Shown: positions 23,535 through 38,858 of the stretch, in pieces | How positions within the stretch are numbered: position 1 is the first letter of the stretch | How the letters are laid out: every line of letters begins with the position of its first letter | DNA from: a virus | DNA: 41,473 bases | Virus record (IMG/VR): IMGVR_UViG_3300045988_036724 | Strand: one strand, 5' to 3' | The notes under the pieces: model-generated | Seen by the model: only the letters and a program-made list of their open reading frames with translations | Told to the model about the DNA's origin: nothing | Databases searched by the model: none | Made by a program: the position numbers and the translations under genes

Positions 23535-25273
23535 GCTATAAAGTCTATGCCGGGACTCAGACGGCAATTGATACATGGAGCGAAAAGGTCTGTATCTATG
23601 ACCCGGGTTCCGAGGATGACACCAAAATCCTGCTGGATCCGGTGCTCACGCGGGAAGATAACAAAGCGGGAAGCTTTGAGGCTACCGTGCCGCTGGGCAA
23701 TATTGCCCACTCTGCTTTGCAGAAGCTGAAAGCCATCGTGGAAGTAGAGCAGGACGGCGAAACGCTCTGGCAGGGGCGCGTCATGAGCCACGACATGGAC
23801 TTTTATCTCAATCAAAAAATCTACTGTGAGGGCGAGCTGGCGTACCTCAACGACAGTTCCATGGTCCCGTACAAGTACGAGTGGATCACGATCCCCGAGT
23901 TTCTTGGCAAAGTGCTGGACAGCCACAACAGCCAGACGGAGGGCTACAAGGCCTTTTACCGTGGCACCGTGGACGCGGGTTATCAGCAGGTGCTTTATGC
24001 TACAGGCTGCACCGTCCAGAGCCGCGAAAAAGAGGACGATGACGGCAATGTAGACCGCTGGTATACCTACTACGATCAGAGCGGAAGAATACTGGCTTCG
24101 ATCGATGCTAACCCGTCCAGCTGGGATGATGACCCGTCCAGATGGGAAGTGGGTTCCACCCACTACGTCGGCGGCACGGATTATGTATGGGGCCAAGCTG
24201 AGGATGCCGCGACGGCTATTACAAAGACGTCCGACACTTTGTATACCGTCAGCACGGGCGTCGTGTACGTCGTGAACAGTGATGGCTCTGAAAAGACCTA
24301 TTTGGCAAATATCAAAGTGGTCACGTCCGGCAGCACAAAGCGGGCCATGTTTGAGCCCACCGACACCGAAAGCGGCACCTATACCGTAAATGTGGCGGAT
24401 GACGGCAGCGTGACCGTGACCATCAAAATCAAAAACTTTATAACCGGGGAAACGACCACCACCACCGGCGTGGGTTATGTGCTGAAAAAAGAGTACAACC
24501 TGTATACCTTTGGCGACGGCAAAAACTTTGGCGTTACCTGGGACATCTTGCAGTCTGAGCTCACGGACACCTACGGCGGGCATTTTATCGTGCGGAGAGA
24601 GAAGCGGAAGCTTGTCAATACCACCATCACCCTGCGGTATCTGGATTATGTGTCCAATGTCACCGAAAAAACCGGGCAGAAAATCGAGTTTGGCGAGAAT
24701 CTTCTGGATCTGGACAGCTATGTCAAGGCAGAAAACATCGTCACCCGCGTCATCGCGGTGGGTTACCGGACAAGCGGCTTCTGGGTGTGGAAGAGAACCA
24801 ATACCCTCACGGCCACGGCCAACGACTACGCCGCCCAGAAGTACTATGGCATCATCACACGGGTTATCGTGATCGAGGGCACATCCTCTACCACAGAGAC
24901 CCTTTTGAAAGCGGCTCAGAAAGAGCTTGCAAAAAATCTGCGGTATCTGGATGGCATGACCATCTCTGCCGTAGACCTGAAAGACGCGGGAGTGGATACC
25001 GAGCGCCTGCAGTTTATGAAGAACGCAGACATCATCTCCGAGCCCCACGGCGTGCATACGTCTCTGACCTGCACCAAGCTTGTGGAGCCGCTGGATAAGC
25101 CGGACGAGAAGAAATTTACCTTTGGGATTGACTTCTCTTCCATCTCTGACCTGCAGGCCCTCAGCGCCCGCAAAGCCACCAACGCTTTTGATATGGCGCA
25201 CTCCGCCGTCATGAGCTTTAACGACTCTACTCCCGCCAGCCTGAGCTTGGACGAAGAGGAAGATTTGAAGTAA
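23531..25273 (+). CDS. tail-associated/baseplate hub protein (Tal-like minor structural protein)
   Basis: ATG 23531 overlaps the previous stop. 580 aa. N-terminal pattern DPVLTREDNKAGSFEATVP.... Confidence 0.7.
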   Translation: MSYKVYAGTQTAIDTWSEKVCIYDPGSEDDTKILLDPVLTREDNKAGSFEATVPLGNIAHSALQKLKAIVEVEQDGETLWQGRVMSHDMDFYLNQKIYCEGELAYLNDSSMVPYKYEWITIPEFLGKVLDSHNSQTEGYKAFYRGTVDAGYQQVLYATGCTVQSREKEDDDGNVDRWYTYYDQSGRILASIDANPSSWDDDPSRWEVGSTHYVGGTDYVWGQAEDAATAITKTSDTLYTVSTGVVYVVNSDGSEKTYLANIKVVTSGSTKRAMFEPTDTESGTYTVNVADDGSVTVTIKIKNFITGETTTTTGVGYVLKKEYNLYTFGDGKNFGVTWDILQSELTDTYGGHFIVRREKRKLVNTTITLRYLDYVSNVTEKTGQKIEFGENLLDLDSYVKAENIVTRVIAVGYRTSGFWVWKRTNTLTATANDYAAQKYYGIITRVIVIEGTSSTTETLLKAAQKELAKNLRYLDGMTISAVDLKDAGVDTERLQFMKNADIISEPHGVHTSLTCTKLVEPLDKPDEKKFTFGIDFSSISDLQALSARKATNAFDMAHSAVMSFNDSTPASLSLDEEEDLK

Positions 25274-25284
25274 GGAGAAAATTT

Positions 25285-27021
25285 ATGGCTACGAATCTTA
25301 CTGACATCATCAAAAAAGTACGCACTGCCTTGCGAGGTGAAGAGGTGCGCGGCAGCATCGCCGACGGGCTGGAGTTTTGTGGGCAGATTTCCGAGAATGC
25401 CAAAGCAGATATGGAGGCAACTGCCGCATCCACCAAAGAGCAGCTGTCTAAAGATATCGACGCCAAAGCCGCAGAGACACTCAAGAGCATCCCGGAGAGC
25501 TATACGGAGATTGATGGAAGTGTGAAGCAGCTAAAGGAAGATTTATGGGAAAATCCATCTGTTTATTCGCCGTTTGAGTTGGGCACTTTAATTAATGGTG
25601 AAATTGCCAAAGTTAAATATAGAATTGTGTCCACAAACATTATCCATACCACCTCAAAACTGTACATTGCAATAGGCAAAAATAGGAGAGCTGGTATACA
25701 TTATTATGACTCTAATGGGAAATTTCTCTATGACTCAAAATGGCGTACCTTAGAATATGTCATTCCAGAAAACTCATACTTTAGAATTGTTATATCTGCA
25801 TTTCCGAAAACTGTGGAAGATGAATTACTTGAATATAAAGCAAATGTGAATACACTTTTGGAATATGTTAAATTTAATCCAATTTGTGAAATTCTTGCAA
25901 AAAATGCCGTAAAAGATATAGTTAAAAAATTGAGCAAAAGAGAAAAAATAACATTTTATGATTATTTTGAAACAAACGAATGGACATCTTGCAATGATTG
26001 GAATAATGGAGAACTTACATATACCGATACTAATTCAAGGTTGGGCTTGTTGAACATTATGGATACCGAGACCGACATTAATTTAAGTGTAGAAAAAGGT
26101 CGAAGATTAGGTGTTGCATATTTTGACGAAAACGGAAAGTTTGTTAAAGACCCGGGATGGCAGAAAGGGCACGTATTTATTCCTAAAAATTCTCATGTTA
26201 AGTTCTTAATTTCCCACACCGATGTCACTAATGATGACGAATTTGAGGAGTATGCCGATGCTAACAAATACTTAAAATACATTAGTTTTGAAAATTTTCA
26301 ATTCTTCAATAAAAAAATAAACGCATATCCATTTTCTACAAATGTTTCACTTGAAACAATAGTGGATACACAAAATTTGAAAAGAATGCAAGGCGGAGTC
26401 TTTGCTAATGGGTATTTATATTATGCCAAAACTGACGACACAATTGCTACAATATATAAATATGATTTGGCGTCTAAAACAGAAGTGCTGAGTGCGAGTG
26501 GCAATTACGGACACGCTGGAGATATGACATACAATTCCGCAAAAAATCTTATTGTTGTTATTCATGGAGGCACTTCGGAGACAAATATTTGGTTTTTGTC
26601 TCCCGAAACTCTTGAACTTGTGTCAAGTAAAACCGTATTGACTGCCGGAAGAAGAATTGGCGGAATAGCATATATTGGAGATAGTAATGAATATGTTTTG
26701 GAGCTATCCAAGGATGGCGTATGGAACAATTATAGCTTTGCAATATGCGATAATGATTTTAATATAAAGTTAGAATTTGAGCCAATAAAAAATGGCTACT
26801 TAATGCAAGGGATCGAATGCAATAATAATTTCATTTACTCACTATACGCATTCCCCAATATCGTCATTGTTTATGACTTGAACGGAGATTATGTTGGCTG
26901 CCATAAAATTGACATTTCGACTGAACCAGAATTTATTACATTGAATGGCGACGAAATTATTATCGGGTCAGATGGTGACGGGATTATCAGAAAAGCAACT
27001 CGAAAATACTTGTGGGAGTAA
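25285..27021 (+). CDS. tail fibre / receptor-binding protein, mosaic
   Basis: A GC-rich conserved N-terminus (about 80 aa) is followed by a very AT-rich body. The body contains a tandemly duplicated domain of about 90 aa (..G.HYYDSNGKF.. / ..GVAYFDENGKF..). Confidence 0.7.
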   Translation: MATNLTDIIKKVRTALRGEEVRGSIADGLEFCGQISENAKADMEATAASTKEQLSKDIDAKAAETLKSIPESYTEIDGSVKQLKEDLWENPSVYSPFELGTLINGEIAKVKYRIVSTNIIHTTSKLYIAIGKNRRAGIHYYDSNGKFLYDSKWRTLEYVIPENSYFRIVISAFPKTVEDELLEYKANVNTLLEYVKFNPICEILAKNAVKDIVKKLSKREKITFYDYFETNEWTSCNDWNNGELTYTDTNSRLGLLNIMDTETDINLSVEKGRRLGVAYFDENGKFVKDPGWQKGHVFIPKNSHVKFLISHTDVTNDDEFEEYADANKYLKYISFENFQFFNKKINAYPFSTNVSLETIVDTQNLKRMQGGVFANGYLYYAKTDDTIATIYKYDLASKTEVLSASGNYGHAGDMTYNSAKNLIVVIHGGTSETNIWFLSPETLELVSSKTVLTAGRRIGGIAYIGDSNEYVLELSKDGVWNNYSFAICDNDFNIKLEFEPIKNGYLMQGIECNNNFIYSLYAFPNIVIVYDLNGDYVGCHKIDISTEPEFITLNGDEIIIGSDGDGIIRKATRKYLWE

Positions 27022-27023
27022 AG

Positions 27024-27869
27024 ATGGCTTTATCTTATCAAAAACTGAAAGGACGTGACCAAATGAACCTCCTAAACTTCCTCTCCCGCCTCTTTTCCGC
27101 CCTTGCCAACGCAAAGGAAGCGGCAGACAACTCCACCGCAGATCCTGCCCCCGTGTCCACTGTGGACACCCAGAGCGCCGCTCCCCCCGGCTGGGGCGGG
27201 CCGCTGCCTTACCGATACATCGACGTGAGCCGGTATCAGGGCAAAATCACCCTCGACGGCTGGCGCAAGGTCAAAGCGGCTGGCTACAAGGGCGTCATGC
27301 TCAAGACGGTCTCCACGAATCCGAAGATGAGCAAGCGGGCAGACGGACTGTACATCGACCCGACCTTTGAGCGCAACTACCGCAACGCCCGGGCCGCTGG
27401 GCTGGACGTGGGCGTCTACTACTACACCTACGCCACCAGCGAAGCGATGGCGGATGCAGAGCTTGCCCTTGTGCGGCAGGCGGTCTACGGCAAGGAGCTT
27501 ACCATGCCCCTCGCGGTGGACGTGGAGGAAAACAAGCTCAAGCCCATGAGCACCCTCGACCTCACCAACCTCACCGCCTACGCGTTGGAACAGGTGGAGA
27601 AGATGGGCTTTTATGCCCAGCTGTACACCTACACCCACTACTCTAACATGGAGCTGGACATGGGCCGTCTGGCAAGCCGTTGGGACGTCTGGCTGTCCGA
27701 TACAACCGGGCACACTCCCGCCGTTGGCTACCACTACAACGCCCACCAGCACACCAGCGAGGGCCGCGTGCCGGGCATTACGGGAAATGTAGACCTCAAC
27801 GTCACCACCCGCAACTATCCGAAGATCATCAAGACAAAGGGCCTGACGCGGCTCAGGGAGGGCACATGA
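27024..27869 (+). CDS. GH25-family lysozyme endolysin
   Basis: YIDVSRYQG, DPTFERNY, AAGLDVGVYYY, PLAVDVEE and VDLNV motifs. The start could be 27024 or 27063. Confidence 0.85.
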   Translation: MALSYQKLKGRDQMNLLNFLSRLFSALANAKEAADNSTADPAPVSTVDTQSAAPPGWGGPLPYRYIDVSRYQGKITLDGWRKVKAAGYKGVMLKTVSTNPKMSKRADGLYIDPTFERNYRNARAAGLDVGVYYYTYATSEAMADAELALVRQAVYGKELTMPLAVDVEENKLKPMSTLDLTNLTAYALEQVEKMGFYAQLYTYTHYSNMELDMGRLASRWDVWLSDTTGHTPAVGYHYNAHQHTSEGRVPGITGNVDLNVTTRNYPKIIKTKGLTRLREGT

Positions 27870-28264
27870 CTGAAAAAGAGGCTTTGATCTGGATTGTGGG
27901 CATCTTGGGCAGTGCGTGCGCGGCAGCGATTACGCTGGACAAGGTGCTGGACATCATCCACAAGTACATCAAAAAGGCACAGGCTCCCGACGATGCACAG
28001 GACAAGCGGCTTGATGAGCTGGACAGGCGCGTGGGAGTGCTTGAGACGGGCTACTCTAACCACTCTGCCGCTCTGGGCCGCGATCTGGAGCATTTTGGGG
28101 CGCTGGAAAACGCCATCACCATCCTTTTGCGCTCCAACCGCGCCGTTTTAGGCGCTCAGTTGTCAGGTGATAATATCAAAGCAATGGAACAGAGTGCGGA
28201 GGAAATCGACAAGTTTTTGTATGAGAGGAGAGAAAACGCATGGACGCATCAGCAAAAATCCTGA
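27866..28264 (+). CDS. lysis-module membrane protein (one N-terminal TM, coiled coil)
   Basis: LIWIVGILGSACAAAITL TM segment. The ATG overlaps the endolysin stop. Confidence 0.5.
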   Translation: MTEKEALIWIVGILGSACAAAITLDKVLDIIHKYIKKAQAPDDAQDKRLDELDRRVGVLETGYSNHSAALGRDLEHFGALENAITILLRSNRAVLGAQLSGDNIKAMEQSAEEIDKFLYERRENAWTHQQKS

Positions 28265-28578
28265 GCGCCGTCCCGGGCCCGGTGGCCCTGGCTCTGATGC
28301 TGGGCGGCTTCATCTTCTACGCCCTTGGCTGCATCCGGCTGGGATATGGTGCGGCGGTCAAGCCCACCGTGCTCCAGCTCATCGAGCAGGCAGAAAAGGA
28401 CATCCAGGGCACCAAAAAAGGCGCGGAGCGCAAAGCCTGGGTGGCTCAGATGCTCCGCACGGCTCTCAGCGCCAGCAAGTGGGGCAAATTCATCTCGTGG
28501 GCCATCACAGATGAGACCATCGGGATTGTGATTCAGTTTTTCTTTGATCGAGTCAAAGAAACGCTCAGTAAAGATTAA
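28240..28578 (+). CDS. holin (LL-H-like)
   Basis: N-terminal TM PVALALMLGGFIFYALG, then GTKKGAERKAWVAQML, typical of LL-H holins. Confidence 0.6.
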   Translation: MDASAKILSAVPGPVALALMLGGFIFYALGCIRLGYGAAVKPTVLQLIEQAEKDIQGTKKGAERKAWVAQMLRTALSASKWGKFISWAITDETIGIVIQFFFDRVKETLSKD

Positions 28579-28589
28579 AGGAGGATATC

Positions 28590-28829
28590 ATGGCAAGCAC
28601 TACATACGAGCATTTTGTTGACACCAACAAAATGTACGCCGCACAAAAGCAATTTCGTGACATCACGAAATTGGTCTGCGCACGTTTTCGTGGCTTCACG
28701 AAAACATACCATCTCGGTAACGCCTCAGTAATGGTGCGCAACTCCGGACAGTTGCCGCAGCCTTTCTGGCTCGGTGCTGCCTGTGGCGGCGGCTCGTGTA
28801 GTGCTGCCACTGTGCCTGCAAGGACTTGA
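28590..28829 (+). CDS. hypothetical protein, possibly the N-terminal half of a split regulator
   Basis: A strong AAAGGAGG RBS. It overlaps the next ORF, which lies in another frame. Confidence 0.5.
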   Translation: MASTTYEHFVDTNKMYAAQKQFRDITKLVCARFRGFTKTYHLGNASVMVRNSGQLPQPFWLGAACGGGSCSAATVPART

Positions 28830-29007
28830 CCGCCAGCAGATGACAGCCGCCATCAAAAGCGCACCGCTTGGGAGGGTAGACCGTAAGATAGCCTTACTGC
28901 GGTACGTTGAGCGGCTTCCGCAGGCCGACATTGCAGCACGCACCCACTACTCCCGGCAGGCGGTGAGCTATCGCCTGCAAAGCATTGATAAAATGCTGGA
29001 TATGTGA
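28774..29007 (+). CDS. sigma-70 region-4-like HTH fragment
   Basis: RKIALLRYVERLPQADIAARTHYSRQAVSYRLQSIDKML. There is no good RBS of its own. Together the two ORFs are about 139 aa. Confidence 0.45.
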   Translation: MLPVAAARVVLPLCLQGLDRQQMTAAIKSAPLGRVDRKIALLRYVERLPQADIAARTHYSRQAVSYRLQSIDKMLDM

Positions 29008-29044
29008 TATACTATCTGCACACCTCCCTGTGAGGTGTCTTTCA

Positions 29045-29092
29045 CAAAAAATCCCCCGGGTGATGTTTGCGCATCGCTCGGGGGATTTTTTA
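29045..29092. terminator. bidirectional intrinsic terminator (end of late operon / end of acidic gene A1)
   Basis: AAAAAA ATCCCCCG ... CGGGGGAT TTTTT. Confidence 0.85.
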
Positions 29093-29093
29093 T

Positions 29094-29402
29094 TTACTCC
29101 ATGTCCTCCAGCACTTTGAGGTACTTGGGATAAAGCTCATCAATGATGACCTGCTTTTCCATGTCGTCCAGCTCACCGTTCATGAGGGCATCGCTCTGGC
29201 TCTGATCGTCGAGAACCAGCTTGGTGGTGATGGTCTCTTCAGCATCGTCGCAACACCGGACAAGATCACCGTCCTCGGTGATGTGTGCGTAGATCGTCCA
29301 GATCTGGCAATCACGGCTTGCGGATTCAAAATCCTCATATTCAATCTCGGTACCGTTCTCCATGACCTTGGTTGCGAACTCTTCAGCAGTCAGCTTTTTC
29401 AT
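29094..29402 (-). CDS. very acidic small protein A1 (102 aa, 28 D/E vs 9 K/R)
   Basis: GGAGG lies 8 nt before ATG 29402. The leader is shared with A2. Confidence 0.75.
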   Translation of the reverse strand: MKKLTAEEFATKVMENGTEIEYEDFESASRDCQIWTIYAHITEDGDLVRCCDDAEETITTKLVLDDQSQSDALMNGELDDMEKQVIIDELYPKYLKVLEDME

Positions 29403-29448
29403 TTTAGTTACCTCCAGTTGATTGTGTGTGGTGTCTTTCACTTTCTAC

Positions 29449-29477
29449 AGTATGCGCTCGTTGAGCGTATTTGTCAA
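29449..29477 (-). promoter_or_regulatory. sigma-70 promoter P1 (TTGACA-17-CATACT) flanked by operator palindromes
   Basis: -35 at 29472-29477 and -10 at 29449-29454 (minus strand). GCTCgTTGAGC at 29456-29466 and GCTCAaTGAGC at 29498-29508. Confidence 0.7.
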
Positions 29478-29509
29478 GGTTTTTTGCAAAAATTTATGCT
29501 CAATGAGCA

Positions 29510-29555
29510 CAAAAAATCTCTGGCGCCTTATACTAGACTGCCAGAGATTTTTTCT
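29510..29555. terminator. bidirectional terminator after the HTH gene
   Basis: AAAAAA ATCTCTGGC ... GCCAGAGAT TTTTTT. Confidence 0.8.
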
Positions 29556-29594
29556 CAGCTCGTTAATGGCGTTTTTATCTCATCCTGCCACCCA

Positions 29595-29918
29595 TTACAG
29601 AAGTCCATAATGCTCTGCCAGCAAAAAGCGGATGTATACAGGGCACTCTCTTGTCTCACCGCACCAGCCTTGCAGTGTACGATAAGGAACCCCGGCCATC
29701 TTGGCAAAGGCCGTCTGCGTGAGGCCTGTCTCTTCCACCATCTCTTTAAAAGACATGTGGGCGATCTCCCAAATATTTTCAAGCTTAGTCTTTTGGGCGT
29801 CCAGATCAACGCACCCAGAGGCATCGTCCTCCACGCTGAGGGTGACGTTGTTCAAAAAGATTTCTTTAACGGCCTTTGGGTCAGATGCCATGACGAAAAG
29901 TTCAGCTGCATTATACAT
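29595..29918 (-). CDS. small HTH protein between the two acidic-gene cassettes
   Basis: AAGGAG RBS. C-terminal HTH GLTQTAFAKMAGVPYRTLQGW. Confidence 0.7.
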   Translation of the reverse strand: MYNAAELFVMASDPKAVKEIFLNNVTLSVEDDASGCVDLDAQKTKLENIWEIAHMSFKEMVEETGLTQTAFAKMAGVPYRTLQGWCGETRECPVYIRFLLAEHYGLL

Positions 29919-29942
29919 TGCAATTCTCCTTTTTTGATTGAT

Positions 29943-29986
29943 AAATTCCCCGGGTGGTGTTCGCGCGTCACTCGGGGATTTTTTAT
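29943..29986. terminator. hairpin with a strong T-run on + and a weak one on - (partial terminator after A2)
   Basis: TCCCCG ... CGGGGA followed by TTTTTTATTT. Near-identical architecture to 29045-29092. Confidence 0.65.
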
Positions 29987-30160
29987 TTACTGCTCGTTCT
30001 CTTCAAACATTTTGAAATATTTCTCGTACTCTTCCCACTCTTCGGGGTCTGCCGGGTCATCACAAGCCGGGCTGCAATACTCTGCAATCCACTCTTCCTT
30101 GTCGGTGCTTCTCCAACCGCCATCGAACATCGCTGCTGCACTGCTGTAATAATCTTTCAT
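29987..30160 (-). CDS. very acidic small protein A2 (57 aa, 17 D/E vs 5 K/R)
   Basis: Same leader and RBS as A1 (GGAGGTAAATAAAATG). Confidence 0.7.
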   Translation of the reverse strand: MKDYYSSAAAMFDGGWRSTDKEEWIAEYCSPACDDPADPEEWEEYEKYFKMFEENEQ

Positions 30161-30206
30161 TTTATTTACCTCCAGTTGATTGTGTGTGGTGTCTTTCACT
30201 GTCTTT

Positions 30207-30235
30207 ATTATATGCTCATTGAGCGTATTTGTCAA
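30207..30235 (-). promoter_or_regulatory. consensus sigma-70 promoter P2 (TTGACA-17-TATAAT) flanked by operator palindromes
   Basis: -35 at 30230-30235 and -10 at 30207-30212 (minus strand). GCTCAtTGAGC at 30214-30224 and GCTCAaTGAGt at 30256-30266. Confidence 0.8.
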
Positions 30236-30319
30236 GGCTTTTTGCAAAATTTTATGCTCAATGAGTTTATTTCTTTGTGCCTGTGCGGCCCCGCTGCCGT
30301 GCGGGCGCTTTTTTATTTT

Positions 30320-30350
30320 TGGCACTCGTTTGGCATTCGTTGGCACTCAC
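30320..30350 (+). promoter_or_regulatory. three tandem TGGCAYTC repeats (spacing 11 and 10 nt); the first pair resembles a sigma-54 -24/-12 element
   Basis: tggcactcgtt tggcattcgt tggcactcac. TGGCAC at 30320, with GC at consensus positions 14-15. Confidence 0.35.
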
Positions 30351-30393: not shown

Positions 30394-30786
30394 ATGTGGC
30401 ACAAGTTTAACCCGAACCCGCACGGGAGCAGCGTCGGGGACTGCGTAGTGCGGGCGGCAGCTGCGGCCACCGGTCAGAGCTGGGAGAAAGCTTACCTTGG
30501 GCTTGCGCTTACTGGCTTTATCATCGGCGATATGCCCAGCGCCAACCGCACATGGGGCGCATACCTCCAAAAGCGCGGGTTCAAGCGCAGTTTGGTGGAG
30601 GCAGACTGCACCACCTGTTACACCGTGGCAGATTTTGCCCGGGAGTACCCCCGCGGTGTGTATGTACTGGGCTGCTCCGGCCACGTTCTGGCCGTCATCG
30701 ACGGCGAGTGGTGGGACAGCTGGGACAGCGGCGCAGAATGCCCGATCTACTACTGGTACAAGGAGGAAAACGATGCCGATTTATAA
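30394..30786 (+). CDS. putative papain-like cysteine peptidase-fold protein
   Basis: AGGGAGGGGG RBS. Ordered candidate catalytic residues: VGDCVVRA ... SGHVLAVIDGEWWDSWD. Confidence 0.6.
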   Translation: MWHKFNPNPHGSSVGDCVVRAAAAATGQSWEKAYLGLALTGFIIGDMPSANRTWGAYLQKRGFKRSLVEADCTTCYTVADFAREYPRGVYVLGCSGHVLAVIDGEWWDSWDSGAECPIYYWYKEENDADL

Positions 30787-33905: not shown

Positions 33906-33935
33906 ATAATCTAACAAACAATCTAACAAATCAAT
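33906..33935 (+). repeat. attP arm-type repeat R2 (ATAATCTAACAAACAATCTAACAAATCAAT)
   Basis: Direct repeat of R1, on the other side of the core. It overlaps the int stop codon. Confidence 0.8.
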
Positions 33936-35064
33936 ACTTCATTTTTTGCATTTCCCGCAACAGATAAGCCGGGTCATTGTGGGAGACGTACTTGTTGGCT
34001 GTGGTGGAGAAATTTTTGTGACCCAAGATTGCCTGCACGGCGGTCTTTTCCAGGCCGCACTCCACCATCTTGCTGCTGGCTGTGTGGCGCAGCGTGTGTG
34101 GATGCACGCCCTCTATATGGCATTCCTGCATCAACGCCCGGAACTTTGTAGCCACGTTACGCTTGTCCAGCTTTGTGCCGGCTTTGGACGGTATCAGCCA
34201 TTCACACCCGCTGTCCATCATCCAAAAGGCAATGATCTTGTAAATGGGCTCAAGGATGGGGATGATGCGGTTCTTGCCCGCCTCGGTCTTTTCACCGCCC
34301 TGCATGTACCGCTCTTTCAGGTTCACGTCCTCACAGCGCATGGAAAGCAGCTCATCGATACGCATACCGGTGTAAAGCAGCACCATTGCGATTTGCGCCG
34401 TCTGCCCAAACTTCGGGTCGTCTTGTCGGCCGCTGATCCGCTCAATCTCTTGGGCGGTCAGGGTGCGTTCTTCCTTGCCTGTAGCCGCCGGGAGCTGCAG
34501 CAGCATGGCGTAATTTTTGTTTATGATATCCTGAGCCATTGCCCACTCGCAGATCTGGCTGAAAAGCGTGCGCTGCTTTTCGCAGGAGCTGCGTGAAAGG
34601 CCCTTTTCCACCATTGCGTCAATGACCTGTTGATAATCTGCCGCTTTCAAGTCCCGCAATTGTCGGTCGTATAGCGGCGCAGCCTTTGCATAGGCCAGCT
34701 CGTACCCCTTTTTCATGTCAGTACTGAGCTTGTCAAACTTGGGCTGCACTTTCCATTGGGCGTAGGCATCCGCAAAAGTGAATTTCAGACGCGCTGCGGG
34801 GGTGTTCTGGGCGTTGTAAGCATCCAGTGCTTGTACTGCTTCGCCCGGCGTCGCAAACGTCCCCAGAACGTCTCGCTTGGCTGTCAGGGCCACATACGGC
34901 TTTGACCTCGTCCCGCTCAGTTTATACACGCTGCCGCTGCCCTTTGGGCGGCGGCGTTTTTTTCTTTGCTGCGGGGCGGCTTCCGGCTGCTTCTTCCCGC
35001 ACCACGGACAAAAAGAAGCACCATCCGGGATCTCTTTCCGGCAGCATGGTCTCACGCATTTCAT
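33931..35064 (-). CDS. int: tyrosine integrase with N-terminal zinc ribbon and AP2-like arm-binding domain
   Basis: CCRKEIPDGASFCPWCG; GSGSVYKLSGTRSKPYVA...LGTFATPGEA; C-terminal HTLRHT...LGH...Y catalytic signature. Confidence 0.95.
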   Translation of the reverse strand: MKCVRPCCRKEIPDGASFCPWCGKKQPEAAPQQRKKRRRPKGSGSVYKLSGTRSKPYVALTAKRDVLGTFATPGEAVQALDAYNAQNTPAARLKFTFADAYAQWKVQPKFDKLSTDMKKGYELAYAKAAPLYDRQLRDLKAADYQQVIDAMVEKGLSRSSCEKQRTLFSQICEWAMAQDIINKNYAMLLQLPAATGKEERTLTAQEIERISGRQDDPKFGQTAQIAMVLLYTGMRIDELLSMRCEDVNLKERYMQGGEKTEAGKNRIIPILEPIYKIIAFWMMDSGCEWLIPSKAGTKLDKRNVATKFRALMQECHIEGVHPHTLRHTASSKMVECGLEKTAVQAILGHKNFSTTANKYVSHNDPAYLLREMQKMKY

Positions 35065-36299: not shown

Positions 36300-37016
36300 T
36301 TACAGGCCAAGCAACTGAGATTTCTTTGCGTTGTACTCCGCTTCCGTGATGGCCCCCATATCCAGCAGCTGCTTAAACTTCAAAAGTTCATCGGCAGAGC
36401 TGGGGGCAGCCGGAGCGGTGCCCCGCGGCTGTTCTGGAGAGCCTTTGCAACTCTTGAGAAACGCAGTCATTCCGCCTGGATAAACCGTTGTCGGCAAGTT
36501 GCTTTCGCCTAGTGGAAGCGAAAAGTGGATAGATACGCTCTCTTTACTGCGACCCTTGCGGGTCTCTGTTTTAGCGGTGGCAGCGCCCACGATCGCACCC
36601 ACAGACCCGGCAACGGCTGCACCGATCACGGCACGGCCAATACCGCCCTTTGTCTCTGTCACCGTCAGATCGTCAGGCGCGTCAGATTCATAACCAACGA
36701 CTTCATCAAAGCTGTAGATCATGCGAGGGCCTTTATCACCGCCTCGGTGCCCAAAGTAAAAAAGCCGGTCGGTTTTGTCAATCGACACAAAGAGCGCGTC
36801 ACCATCATAGATGGAATCGGTTTCTTTGAACACTTTCCGACGCTGTTCCAGTGTAACCCAGTAGCCCACAAGGGCAGCTGTCGGTTGCTTTGCAGCCCGG
36901 ATGCCCAATTTTGAAAAGAAAAAATTGCTGCAGCTGGCGCAAATCAAGCCATCCGCGCTTTTCTCACGGTTCAGAAAGCCCAGCTTGCCGCCGCATATGG
37001 GGCAGATATTCGCCAT
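36300..37016 (-). CDS. zinc-ribbon / glycine-zipper / SHOCT-domain protein
   Basis: CPICGGKLG...CASCS; GGIGRAVIGAAVAGSVGAIVGAATA; C-terminal ELLKFKQLLDMGAITEAEYNAKKSQLL. Confidence 0.8.
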   Translation of the reverse strand: MANICPICGGKLGFLNREKSADGLICASCSNFFFSKLGIRAAKQPTAALVGYWVTLEQRRKVFKETDSIYDGDALFVSIDKTDRLFYFGHRGGDKGPRMIYSFDEVVGYESDAPDDLTVTETKGGIGRAVIGAAVAGSVGAIVGAATAKTETRKGRSKESVSIHFSLPLGESNLPTTVYPGGMTAFLKSCKGSPEQPRGTAPAAPSSADELLKFKQLLDMGAITEAEYNAKKSQLLGL

Positions 37017-37018
37017 GA

Positions 37019-38302
37019 TTACACCTCATTCTTCATTTCTTCTCTAGCTTTTTCAAGCTTCTTGAACTCGTCTTGAATGATTGATTTCAAATCATCGTTA
37101 TAATTGTGCGTAAGCAAGTCAATAGAATCTTTCCAACGCTGGTTAGAGTTCAGACGGCCACGATCCGTTTTCAAGGAACAAATCTTGTCCATTTGAGCGC
37201 TGGAAGAATTTTCAATTACAATCGAAAACAGATCTTTGGTGTGCGTTTCGACACTCCATAAAAGTAACGAAGGACTGTAGTTGAATTTCGCGCCGTGCAT
37301 CTCTGCAGCAGAAAGCTGTTTCAAATCTCTTTTGACAAAATCAATTTTATCAAAAAAATCAGTTACATCTTTTAAACGCTCAATGGATAGAAAATTGTCC
37401 AGAACGCGCCGCATTACAGCTTGCAAATATCCGACAGGAAGTTTATTTGCATAAGATGTGTCTATGCTCAAAGCCGCGGCTGTACGGTCCAACCCATCAC
37501 GAAAACCAAGCTCGTTCCAGTTCAAGGAGGCGGATTCAAGCTTTTTTCTGTATTTATCCACATCGATTCCGACGGCTTTGAGTTTTGCATCTTCCTCTGC
37601 TTTTTTGTGAGCCTTGTATTCGTCAATCTCGCGCCATATCTGGTAAACAACATCTTCCCAGTTACGCGGATCGCCACCTGCAAGTCTCCGATTGATGCCC
37701 CAAACTGAAAAATCATCAGACGCTTCAAGGTTATCAACCGTCAGCCCAGGAGCGTTCATCATATAAACCACATAAAAGTTGTCAGCTACTTCTTGCTTTC
37801 CAAATGCCGTTGGCGCGTATTTCCCGTTTTCCTGCATCTGGATAAACCCTCTTTCTTCAAGGGATTCCAGATAAAAATTGACGTTTTTCATACCGTATTC
37901 AAACCACCAGAAGCCTGGGTACCCCCGCTTTGGGTTTGGATAATCGCCAAAGGAGCAATAGTGTATCAGTGCAATTTCACCCACATACAGCCCTCTGGGG
38001 GATGGATAAGATGTTTTCTTTCGCTCCGCAAAAGACTGTACACGCAGCATCCCGTTTTTGGCTTTGAGCGAAAAAGACGGAACAAAATCAGTGTAATACT
38101 CGGGTTTTTCGTAAAACTTCTCATCCCCGTCTGGAATTGGAGGCTCATCCACAAAGGGCTTTGAAAAATCTTCACAGATGGCGTTTTCTTTTAGCTTTAA
38201 ACCCGCTTCGGGTTTTAACGGCGCTTCTCGGATGTCAGATTTGGCTTCAGACTGCGCTTTTGAATCGGGCTTTTTCCCAAAGACAAGAGACAGAAGCCCC
38301 AT
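37019..38302 (-). CDS. 427-aa protein of unknown function, AT-rich
   Basis: GAGGTG RBS. Translationally coupled to the downstream gene (TAA-tc-ATG). I recognise no motif in it. Confidence 0.8.
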   Translation of the reverse strand: MGLLSLVFGKKPDSKAQSEAKSDIREAPLKPEAGLKLKENAICEDFSKPFVDEPPIPDGDEKFYEKPEYYTDFVPSFSLKAKNGMLRVQSFAERKKTSYPSPRGLYVGEIALIHYCSFGDYPNPKRGYPGFWWFEYGMKNVNFYLESLEERGFIQMQENGKYAPTAFGKQEVADNFYVVYMMNAPGLTVDNLEASDDFSVWGINRRLAGGDPRNWEDVVYQIWREIDEYKAHKKAEEDAKLKAVGIDVDKYRKKLESASLNWNELGFRDGLDRTAAALSIDTSYANKLPVGYLQAVMRRVLDNFLSIERLKDVTDFFDKIDFVKRDLKQLSAAEMHGAKFNYSPSLLLWSVETHTKDLFSIVIENSSSAQMDKICSLKTDRGRLNSNQRWKDSIDLLTHNYNDDLKSIIQDEFKKLEKAREEMKNEV

Positions 38303-38456: not shown

Positions 38457-38798
38457 TCACAGTAACGCCCGGATCGCATTCTTTTTTGCGTCCGATGCGG
38501 CCATAATTTTTCTTACAAGCTCAGCATCTTCTGGAGACAGACTGCTCAGGTCTATCTCTCCAGCGATGCTGGGTTTTTCTTTTTGTGCCGGCTCTTGACC
38601 CATGAGCTCCTCAATAGAAATTTGCAAAAAGTCGGCTACCAGCAATAGCTTGTCTTTCGGCGGATAGCGCTTTCCATTAGCCCATTTTCCTACTGTTCCG
38701 TTGGCAAATTTCAAATCTTTCTCCATTTTTGTAATGGAGCTTCCTCGATTTTTACACGATGCACGGATAAATTCCACCAGTTCAGGCAAAGAACGCAT
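38457..38798 (-). CDS. CI-like repressor (XRE HTH)
   Basis: SSITKMEKDLKFANGTVGKWANGKRYP. Divergent from the Cro-like gene across an operator-promoter region. Confidence 0.85.
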   Translation of the reverse strand: MRSLPELVEFIRASCKNRGSSITKMEKDLKFANGTVGKWANGKRYPPKDKLLLVADFLQISIEELMGQEPAQKEKPSIAGEIDLSSLSPEDAELVRKIMAASDAKKNAIRALL

Positions 38799-38814: not shown

Positions 38815-38858
38815 TAGCCTAATTTTCTATTGACAGCTAGAAAATTAGGCTATATAAT
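38815..38858 (+). promoter_or_regulatory. early rightward promoter (TTGACA-17-TATAAT) embedded in a perfect 15-bp inverted-repeat operator
   Basis: TAGCCTAATTTTCTA ttgacagc TAGAAAATTAGGCTA tataat. A further ATTTTCTAG half-site lies near 38960. Confidence 0.8.

Follow-up and report, generated by a model that had tools for sequence, protein, structure and literature searches.

We analysed a stretch of viral DNA of 41,473 nucleotides (nt), IMG/VR record IMGVR_UViG_3300045988_036724, which is called the window throughout. Its gene content and the hosts of related loci mark the whole stretch as a temperate siphophage of Faecalibacterium. The subject of this study is an accessory region between the lysis genes and the integrase gene, on the same strand as the integrase and CI-like repressor genes. 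In this region, two promoter-operator-leader cassettes precede two small and very acidic open reading frames (ORFs), A1 and A2, and a gene for a helix-turn-helix (HTH) protein lies between the cassettes. A first-pass annotation made from the letters alone had drawn attention to this arrangement. The arrangement is genuine and non-random, and most of it finds its explanation in comparative data.

The two cassettes and their regulatory DNA

Near-identical regulatory DNA lies ahead of both acidic genes, as had been claimed. A direct repeat of 111 nt with 91% identity occupies 29397-29507 ahead of A1 and 30155-30265 ahead of A2. The promoter ahead of A2, P2 (30235..30207, minus strand), reads TTGACA-17-TATAAT and agrees with the consensus at 12/12 positions, and the promoter ahead of A1, P1 (29477..29449, minus strand), reads TTGACA-17-CATACT and agrees at 10/12. 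Judged from these sequences, both are expected to be strong sigma-70-type promoters that need no activator. Relatives carry TATACT or TATAAT at the -10 position of P1, and the CATACT found here probably weakens this promoter. The leader that precedes each ATG is identical over 35 nt between the two cassettes, in agreement with the conserved leader proposed earlier. The features of the locus, in the reading direction of the minus strand, are as follows.

30277..30308: GC-rich hairpin of 13 pairs with flanking A/T runs upstream of P2, terminator-like, with homologous sequence upstream of the module in relatives; it marks the left boundary of the locus and is likely an insulator against outside transcription
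30254..30268: O2 of cassette 2, a weaker copy of the operator that precedes the -35 box; core 30256-30266 with 1 mismatch, centre 42 bp from that of O1
30230..30235, minus strand: -35 box of P2, TTGACA
30212..30226: O1 of cassette 2, the 15-bp palindrome ACGCTCAATGAGCAT (family consensus ACGCTCAATGAGCGT), which fills the promoter spacer and whose final base is the first T of the -10 box
30207..30212, minus strand: -10 box of P2, TATAAT
30161..30200, minus strand: A2 leader, AGTGAAAGACACC, then a CA-rich tract and the ribosome-binding site GGAGG at 30169-30173
29987..30160, minus strand: A2, 57 amino acids (aa), net charge -12
29943..29986: hairpin after A2, paralogous to the A1 terminator; -15.8 kcal/mol, tail AAUUUAUC, poor U-tract on the minus strand
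29595..29918, minus strand: gene for the 107-aa XRE-type HTH protein
29511..29553: strong bidirectional terminator that ends the A2-HTH unit; 14-nt arms 100% complementary, -26 kcal/mol, z = -5.8, U-run
29496..29510: O2 of cassette 1; core 29498-29508 is perfect GCTCAATGAGC
29472..29477, minus strand: -35 box of P1, TTGACA
29454..29468: O1 of cassette 1, ACGCTCAACGAGCGC, degenerate, with 2 mismatches to the family consensus
29449..29454, minus strand: -10 box of P1, CATACT
29403..29442, minus strand: A1 leader, with the ribosome-binding site GGAGG at 29411-29415
29094..29402, minus strand: A1, 102 aa, net charge -19
29046..29091: strong bidirectional terminator that ends A1 and the convergent plus-strand gene 28774-29007
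29029..29046, minus strand: promoter-less leader relic GTGAAAGACACCTCACA... (leader match 29034-29046) with the small hairpin ACACCTC/GAGGTGT

Each cassette contains two 11-bp palindromes, which are 42 bp apart centre to centre. Both this spacing and the coordinates reported for the palindromes were correct. Perfect copies of GCTCA-n-TGAGC occur only at 29498-29508 and 30214-30224, and the copies at 29456-29466 and 30256-30266 carry one mismatch each. When the whole window was scanned for GCTCAnTGAGC with at most one mismatch, seven matches were found against 1.96 expected, and none of 100 shuffles reached seven. The longer 15-mer ACGCTCAATGAGCGT, with up to three mismatches allowed, was found in the window at the four cassette sites only. 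The degenerate O1 of cassette 1 recurs as an identical variant in one related locus, L031.

The 3' ends of the cassettes are likewise paralogous, with approximately 80% identity over approximately 75 nt, from about 12 codons before the stop codon through the hairpin. The body of each ORF is set inside a common 5' and 3' frame. A1 and A2 had been described as unrelated ORFs, which holds for their bodies but not for the last 12 or so codons, as these are part of the common 3' flank. The hairpins behind A1 and A2 match over 42 nt at 83% and are paralogous as noted before, with the correction that the hairpin behind A2 has no good U-tract on the minus strand. This hairpin is probably leaky and lets transcription run into the HTH gene; the 25-nt gap between the hairpin and that gene is without a promoter. 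The 96-nt region 29000-29095, comprising the A1 terminator and the leader-relic hairpin, has a folding energy of -39 kcal/mol (z = -7.4).

A third copy of the leader is indeed present beyond the A1 terminator, at 29034-29046. It was rejected as a third active cassette: there is no promoter, the T-run of the terminator abutting the copy, and there is no ORF, the sequence running into the 3' end of the convergent gene. The leader was also considered as a structured RNA element of the kind known for Aca2 and rejected, as it folds worse than shuffled sequence (z = +1.0 for the A2 leader and z = +1.27). An Rfam scan of the conserved leader gave sub-threshold hairpin matches only.

The acidic composition of the two proteins was counted exactly as in the first-pass annotation. 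A1 has 28 aspartate or glutamate (D/E) and 9 lysine or arginine (K/R) residues in 102 aa, a net charge per residue of -0.19, and A2 has 17 D/E and 5 K/R in 57 aa, or -0.21 per residue. The most acidic ORF of a non-overlapping set that excludes A1 and A2 has -0.068, roughly a third of the value per residue of either protein.

Probable regulator, operator classes and exchanged cargo

The predicted HTH ORF at 29595-29918 exists and belongs to a family of 114 clusters, mostly of 105-107 aa, whose full-length members are at least 54% identical; at least 533 IMG/VR stretches encode a relative. In the AlphaFold2 (AF2) model, with a predicted local distance difference test (pLDDT) score of 87.5, helices span residues 57-64, 68-75, 79-86 (the recognition helix) and 94-103. 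The HTH domain is C-terminal, behind a family-specific helical N-terminal region of approximately 53 residues that is missing from short homologues. A Foldseek comparison of the model with XRE repressors gave probabilities of 0.9-1.0 and, for most matches, a root-mean-square deviation (rmsd) of roughly 1.4-3 Å over about 50 residues. The C-terminal half superposes on DNA-bound Aca1 (7c0g and 7vjn; probability 0.98-0.99), and C.Esp1396I, C.AhdI, C.Kpn2I, P22 c2, HigA2, HipB and Aca10 are further fold neighbours of the domain. In profile searches, Pfam HTH_3 was matched with E = 0.002, below the gathering score, and phrog_25567 with E = 2.5e-9. The modelled fold places the protein in the XRE/Cro-C1 HTH superfamily.

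Subsequently, the operators of 88 related loci were compared. In 75 of them, the spacer of a TTGACA-17-TATAAT promoter holds a 15-bp palindrome, and the spacer site of the relatives is the perfect palindrome ACGCTCAATGAGCGT, again with the first T of the -10 box as its final base. The half-sites are TGAGCG (class I), TGCGTG (class II) and TGGGTG or TGGGTA (class III/IV). Both palindrome arms change together, while the hexamers and the spacing are fixed across the 88 loci, and in classes I and II O2 follows the operator class at the constant distance of 42 bp. These sequences indicate at least three operator specificity classes. The leader part AGTGAAAGAC is conserved in classes I and II and degenerate in class III/IV.

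The operator class is tracked by one residue of the recognition helix. This residue, 84, lies in the motif R-T-(L/V)-Q-X-W and is G in 16/16 class I, D in 29/29 class II and N in 7/7 class III/IV proteins, counted as unique HTH proteins per class among the 88 loci. Its mutual information with the class equals the class entropy, 1.382 bits, which is true of no other alignment column, the next best reaching 1.169 bits. Several observations argue that the co-variation is more than shared ancestry. Two class I proteins that are overall nearer to class II proteins keep G at this position, and a recombinant HTH protein with a class-II-like C-terminus keeps N. Furthermore, IMG/VR scans seeded by operator DNA alone gave G in 10/10, D in 56/56 and N in 11/12 cases with one H, many of these contigs overlapping the first protein set. 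The truly independent cases are 11 homologues with 32-50% identity from other phages, with G in 4/4, D in 2/2, N in 4/5 and H in 1/5. Most of them are short single-domain HTH proteins (54-76 aa), and two are full-length (113-117 aa). Loci with degenerate promoters also obey the rule.

Two observations on individual loci may be added. The sole exception to the G/D/N rule is the protein with H, encoded by an unrelated phage (L264:6830-7400) in which two promoters have a common class III/IV operator. A single Faecalibacterium contig (CAKTGQ010000006.1) holds two HTH loci approximately 39 kb apart, L012 and L013, both of the N type; neither locus shows a clear promoter by the criteria used.

From the co-variation of residue 84 with the operator class, we infer that the HTH protein binds the palindromes, and it very probably represses both promoters. 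G84 is predicted to set the operator specificity of the protein encoded in the window. The proposal that the protein between the cassettes is an operator-binding regulator is thus strongly supported. The host LexA and the phage CI protein were considered as binders and rejected, as the palindrome is found nowhere else in the window and in particular not in the CI/Cro intergenic region. Binding of CI or Cro at P1 and P2 appears unlikely, since the immunity switch uses a different inverted repeat. That switch (38818-38858) has a consensus TTGACA-17-TATAAT promoter whose -35 box is framed by the 12-bp inverted repeat CCTAATTTTCTA / TAGAAAATTAGG with the arms N8 apart. In the switch as in the cassettes, a consensus promoter contains its operator, although the operator sequences differ.

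The gene content around the regulator is variable. The window and all nine first relatives possess the HTH gene, with the same flanking genes wherever the fetched DNA reaches them, and the exact leader was found in eight IMG/VR contigs. The first gene behind the promoter is A2, a member of the A1 family or a member of other unrelated families of 58-149 aa. Overall, the position before the HTH gene is taken by at least ten unrelated families or, in locus L038, by nothing. Downstream of the HTH gene, some loci have no cargo; others carry A1 behind a promoter copy of its own, genes for HNH/AP2-like or zinc-ribbon proteins, or an orphan DNA methyltransferase gene. Much of the cargo is small in size and strongly acidic: the net charge is -21 for the 121-aa representative of the A1 family (F1), -12 for the 57-aa family F4, which is A2, -12 for the 58-aa family F7 and -14 for the 120-aa family F5. 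At the junctions between cargo and HTH gene, a GC hairpin with a poor U-tract is conserved. The earlier suggestion of a modular cassette array holds: relatives swap unrelated ORFs between constant promoter-leader and hairpin modules. The leader repeats and hairpins that frame the cassettes offer homology for recombination.

The same comparison bears on the third leader copy. In five loci with an A1-family gene before the HTH gene (L032, L039, L073, L084 and L086), the hairpin is followed by AGTGAAAGACACCTCAC..GGAGGT. In L038, this sequence stands directly behind the promoter with no cargo between, and the promoter drives the HTH gene directly. Its position in L038, and elsewhere between the cargo hairpin and the HTH gene, identifies it as the HTH gene's own leader. 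A leader relic also lies behind the A1 terminator in L016-L019 and L023; in L017 and L021, it follows the terminator that belongs to a remnant of A1. By this sequence comparison, the third copy in the window is that leader, carried along when the A1 cassette landed downstream of the HTH gene.

Function of the locus

On balance, we favour the reading that the locus is an autorepressed accessory-gene locus, built and probably working like an anti-defence operon of anti-CRISPR (acr) and anti-CRISPR-associated (aca) genes. P2 would transcribe A2 and, via the leaky hairpin, the HTH gene, and P1, a duplicated and slightly degraded copy of P2, would transcribe A1 as a separate unit. When naked phage DNA enters the cell, both promoters would fire fully and give A2 and A1, together with the HTH protein made by read-through. 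A dimer of the HTH protein would then sit on O1, in the spacer and touching the -10 box, and on the weaker O2 at 42 bp, or four helical turns, upstream. As the protein accumulates, RNA polymerase would be occluded and both units would be kept low, also in the lysogen. A1 and A2 would be interchangeable cargo that most likely, by analogy, neutralises host defences, and phages would swap such cargo by recombination in the common promoter-leader and hairpin modules.

The likeness to acr-aca operons concerns architecture. Passages in PMC9410906 describe acr-aca promoters with near-consensus -35 and -10 boxes, one inverted repeat (IR1) inside the core promoter and a similar one (IR2) upstream or downstream. 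As in the operons of Aca1 (Pseudomonas phage JBD30) and Aca2 (Pectobacterium phage ZF40), variable small genes are followed here by a conserved HTH gene, and a near-consensus promoter has a palindrome in its core (O1, in the spacer) and a further one like it close by (O2, 42 bp upstream). One Aca can regulate a neighbouring operon through repeated motifs, according to a passage in PMC13551039, and the same arrangement of one regulator and a neighbouring operon is found here; the HTH domain also counts Aca1 among its top fold neighbours. The locus differs in that the HTH domain is C-terminal behind the helical region of about 53 residues, and in that the leader is unstructured, giving no indication of control at the RNA level such as has been described for Aca1 and Aca2. 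By analogy, the locus would function in the manner of an acr-aca operon.

In the acrIIA loci of Listeria, which belong to temperate phages of a Firmicute and lie near the lysis end of the prophage, the HTH protein AcrIIA1 represses its promoter through a palindrome. AcrIIA1 is bifunctional, and its extra domain has an inhibitor function. In PDB searches, the HTH protein described here had no sequence match to AcrIIA1. Lambdoid immunity types offer a further parallel, in which repressor and operator diversify jointly into discrete specificity classes within one phage group. The present case differs from them in that an accessory cassette is controlled and not the lysis-lysogeny decision, and in that a single recognition-helix residue tracks the class.

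The cargo proteins were then examined for relatives. The A1 family consists of 32 homologous clusters, all unannotated, and a profile search of 1.84 billion representative proteins yielded only 28 relatives. Two matches to a 'hypothetical protein' at E 0.07 were obtained with A1 by tblastn against GenBank phages, and no informative relative was found there. The AF2 model of A1 (pLDDT 91.5, predicted TM score (pTM) 0.83) shows an alpha/beta core with a long C-terminal helix. The A2 family consists of five clusters and is the first gene behind the promoter in 11 loci. Searches of Pfam, PHROGs, NCBIfam, PADLOC and PDB sequences placed neither A1 nor A2 in a known family. In L280-L282 (e.g. L280:1153-4651), an A1 homologue with 56% identity lies in a long same-strand array of tiny ORFans of a different mobile element; these ORFans are mostly strongly acidic (net charges -8 to -30), and the array has no Pfam matches and no HTH module.

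In their small size and extreme acidity, A1 and A2 resemble Ocr, ArdA and AcrIC5, the last of which is highly acidic and blocks DNA binding (bioRxiv 10.1101/2025.06.06.658234). The acr-aca-like architecture makes a DNA-mimic anti-defence role plausible for both proteins by analogy. Whether A1 and A2 are anti-defence proteins is, in our estimate, an even call.

Several results weigh against this reading. Neither A1 nor A2 matched a known Acr or anti-defence protein in Pfam, PHROGs, NCBIfam, PADLOC or PDB sequences, and none of ten representative cargo families did so in PHROGs, so that no cargo gene is a known acr and a validated anti-CRISPR upstream of the HTH gene, as in acr-aca operons, was not found. 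With Ocr and ArdA in particular, A1 and A2 gave no PDB sequence or profile match. The predicted fold of A1 has no neighbour in the PDB, the best comparison reaching E = 1.3 and TM = 0.34. The best match of A1 in BFVD was weak (E 0.01, TM 0.53, rmsd 5.5, 20% identity) and was to an 'AcrIC5-like domain-containing' protein, the only structural hint of similarity to these three; Pfam scans of the A1 family, including remote members, revealed no AcrIC5 domain. The modelled link to AcrIC5 may serve as a weak lead only. As for the regulator, no match to solved Aca structures was found by sequence and profile up to E 10, including Aca1, Aca2 and Aca10, and no curated family was matched significantly; its fold similarity, also to Aca1 and Aca10, is at the generic XRE level (Foldseek E of at least 0.3). 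These comparisons with solved Acas and curated families give no support for placing it in a named Aca family.

The cargo and the context also count on this side. Families F2, F3, F6 and F9 are not acidic, and several are neutral or basic. In four distant phages (L107, L162, L194 and L261), the same promoter-operator design and a short HTH gene accompany a first ORF that encodes a peptide of 37-45 aa, with a basic N-terminus and a hydrophobic helix and the look of a small membrane protein. These neutral and basic families and membrane-like peptides indicate that the expression platform is not restricted to acidic cargo or to one function. Expression in the lysogen fits the strand of the locus, which is that of the integrase and CI genes, equally well as early expression. 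Finally, with its weakened -10 box and degenerate O1, P1 may leave A1 poorly expressed and regulated here compared with relatives.

Some of these points fit an alternative that assumes the same regulation with a different purpose, in which A1 and A2 are lysogenic-conversion or host-takeover morons, serving for example superinfection exclusion or host physiology, at a low autoregulated level in the prophage. Morons classically stand where this locus does, with the lysis genes on one side and the integrase on the other; the locus shares the strand of the integrase and CI genes, and bidirectional terminators insulate it. As with morons of lambdoid and other temperate phages, the cassettes have their own promoter and terminator, stand between conserved genes and are variably present among close relatives. 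The heterogeneous cargo, with its neutral and basic proteins and the membrane-like peptides of the distant phages, and the missing homology of A1 and A2 to anti-defence proteins also suit this explanation. Unlike such morons, however, the cassettes share a dedicated repressor and a promoter-leader-hairpin frame that permits ORF swaps. Small, highly acidic, fast-swapping ORFans beside a conserved HTH autorepressor are given in passages of PMC10799925 as a signature for finding anti-CRISPRs. The orphan DNA methyltransferase among the cargo and the occurrence of A1 homologues in long arrays of tiny acidic ORFans on another mobile element likewise speak against morons. We regard the moron explanation as a serious but rather unlikely alternative.

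Three other explanations are far less probable. Palindromic operators that overlap the promoter are typical of toxin-antitoxin autoregulation, HigA2 and HipB antitoxins are among the structural neighbours of the HTH protein, and small basic membrane-like peptides precede the HTH gene in some distant loci. A type II toxin-antitoxin or abortive-infection module, with the HTH protein as Xre-type antitoxin and the adjoining small gene as toxin, is nevertheless very improbable: at least ten unrelated families stand before the HTH gene and no partner is conserved, the promoter of L038 drives the HTH gene with no upstream partner at all, and A1 and A2 are acidic soluble proteins without a toxin domain, A1 being a separate transcription unit. 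It is hardly credible that the HTH protein resembles a restriction-modification controller (C-protein), with the palindromes as C-boxes that time a modification or restriction gene. The fold neighbours C.Esp1396I, C.AhdI and C.Kpn2I and the methyltransferase gene behind the HTH gene of L038 would fit this proposal, but no restriction endonuclease was found in any locus, a methyltransferase is present in only 1/88 loci, and the locus in the window has no restriction-modification gene. Activation by the HTH protein bound in the spacer deserves equally little credence. MerR-type activators do bind in the promoter spacer; their promoters, however, have over-long spacers of 19-20 bp, whereas the optimal 17-bp spacer and 12/12 consensus hexamers seen here mean that no activator is needed, and the fold is XRE and not MerR (Pfam MerR_1 E = 0.25).

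The reading of an acr-aca-like autorepressed locus can be extended, although the extended version, which needs all of its parts jointly, is tentative and rather doubtful. In it, the locus would be a portable self-limiting platform for counter-defence genes across phages of gut Clostridia and beyond. One residue (G, D or N with TGAGCG, TGCGTG or TGGGTG) would create mutually insulated classes, and co-resident or co-infecting phages would thus be spared cross-repression of their cassettes. Recombination in the leader and hairpin modules would bring in new ORFs, in a manner reminiscent of gene cassettes, and A1, A2, F5, F7 and F10 would be new inhibitor families directed at Faecalibacterium immune systems. 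The N-terminal domain of the HTH protein might even provide a second, effector function, by analogy with the bifunctional AcrIIA1.

Faecalibacterium is among the most abundant bacteria of the human gut. In the literature searched, nothing was found on how its phages evade host defences, nor any usable link between Faecalibacterium CRISPR types and this locus. An Aca-like autorepressed accessory or anti-defence locus, as this one appears to be, is of a kind already known, and the specificity code and the cargo families are the aspects worth following up. The conserved HTH gene and the searchable promoter-operator signature provide a 'guilt-by-association' anchor for counter-defence in Faecalibacterium phages, which points to about ten candidate families, at least one of them with a confident predicted fold that matches nothing known. 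One amino acid per operator class amounts to a testable recognition code and could serve in Clostridia for the design of repressor-promoter pairs that are orthogonal to one another. Even with cargo of another function than anti-defence, the locus would illustrate the way in which temperate phages bundle accessory genes under a common self-limiting promoter and trade them.

Phage context and neighbouring features

The bacterial genomes that hold related loci are those of Faecalibacterium, including F. prausnitzii ATCC 27768. The main landmarks of the window are as follows.

2.7-7.7 kb: replication genes and a methyltransferase
up to 27 kb: structural genes, with the endolysin next
27012-27869: endolysin
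28240-28578: phage ORF of unknown function (phrog_15303), possibly a holin by position
33931-35064: integrase
38457-38798: CI-like repressor, which faces the Cro/Ant region

The A1 cassette is convergent with a plus-strand ORF of 77 aa at 28774-29007, which resembles sigma-70 region 4 (Sigma70_r4_2 E = 4e-5; phrog_3512, 'sigma factor'). This ORF stands at the end of the lysis cluster, is kept in all relatives and may be a late-gene regulator. In L001 (2260-2600) and 43 other loci, a conserved stretch of approximately 300 nt with hairpins such as AAAAGCGGCAGACCCGAAAGCCTGCCGCTTTT lies downstream of the HTH gene and before the sigma-like gene; it is absent from the window. A basic ORF of 35 aa in this stretch, 'F0', was rejected as spurious, and the stretch is probably conserved non-coding DNA.

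On the other side of the locus, three direct repeats TTGGCA(C/T)TCG lie on the plus strand at 30319-30350, about one helical turn apart and 45-75 nt upstream of the plus-strand gene at 30394. An activator of the rightward operon may bind to them. Relatives have a different repeat, two copies of ACAACGAAGG, in their place.

Two further regions of the window stand out. On the minus strand at 36300-38302, a block of approximately 43% GC lies between the integrase/XRE genes and the CI-like repressor gene and encodes a 427-aa protein without a family match and a 238-aa protein (phrog_888). PADLOC gave no match in this block, which may be unrecognised prophage cargo. At 25001-27000, the GC content falls to 35-42% across a gene for 578 aa (25285-27021), without a PHROG match and directly before the endolysin gene. 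It may encode a tail fibre or receptor-binding protein and have been exchanged recently.

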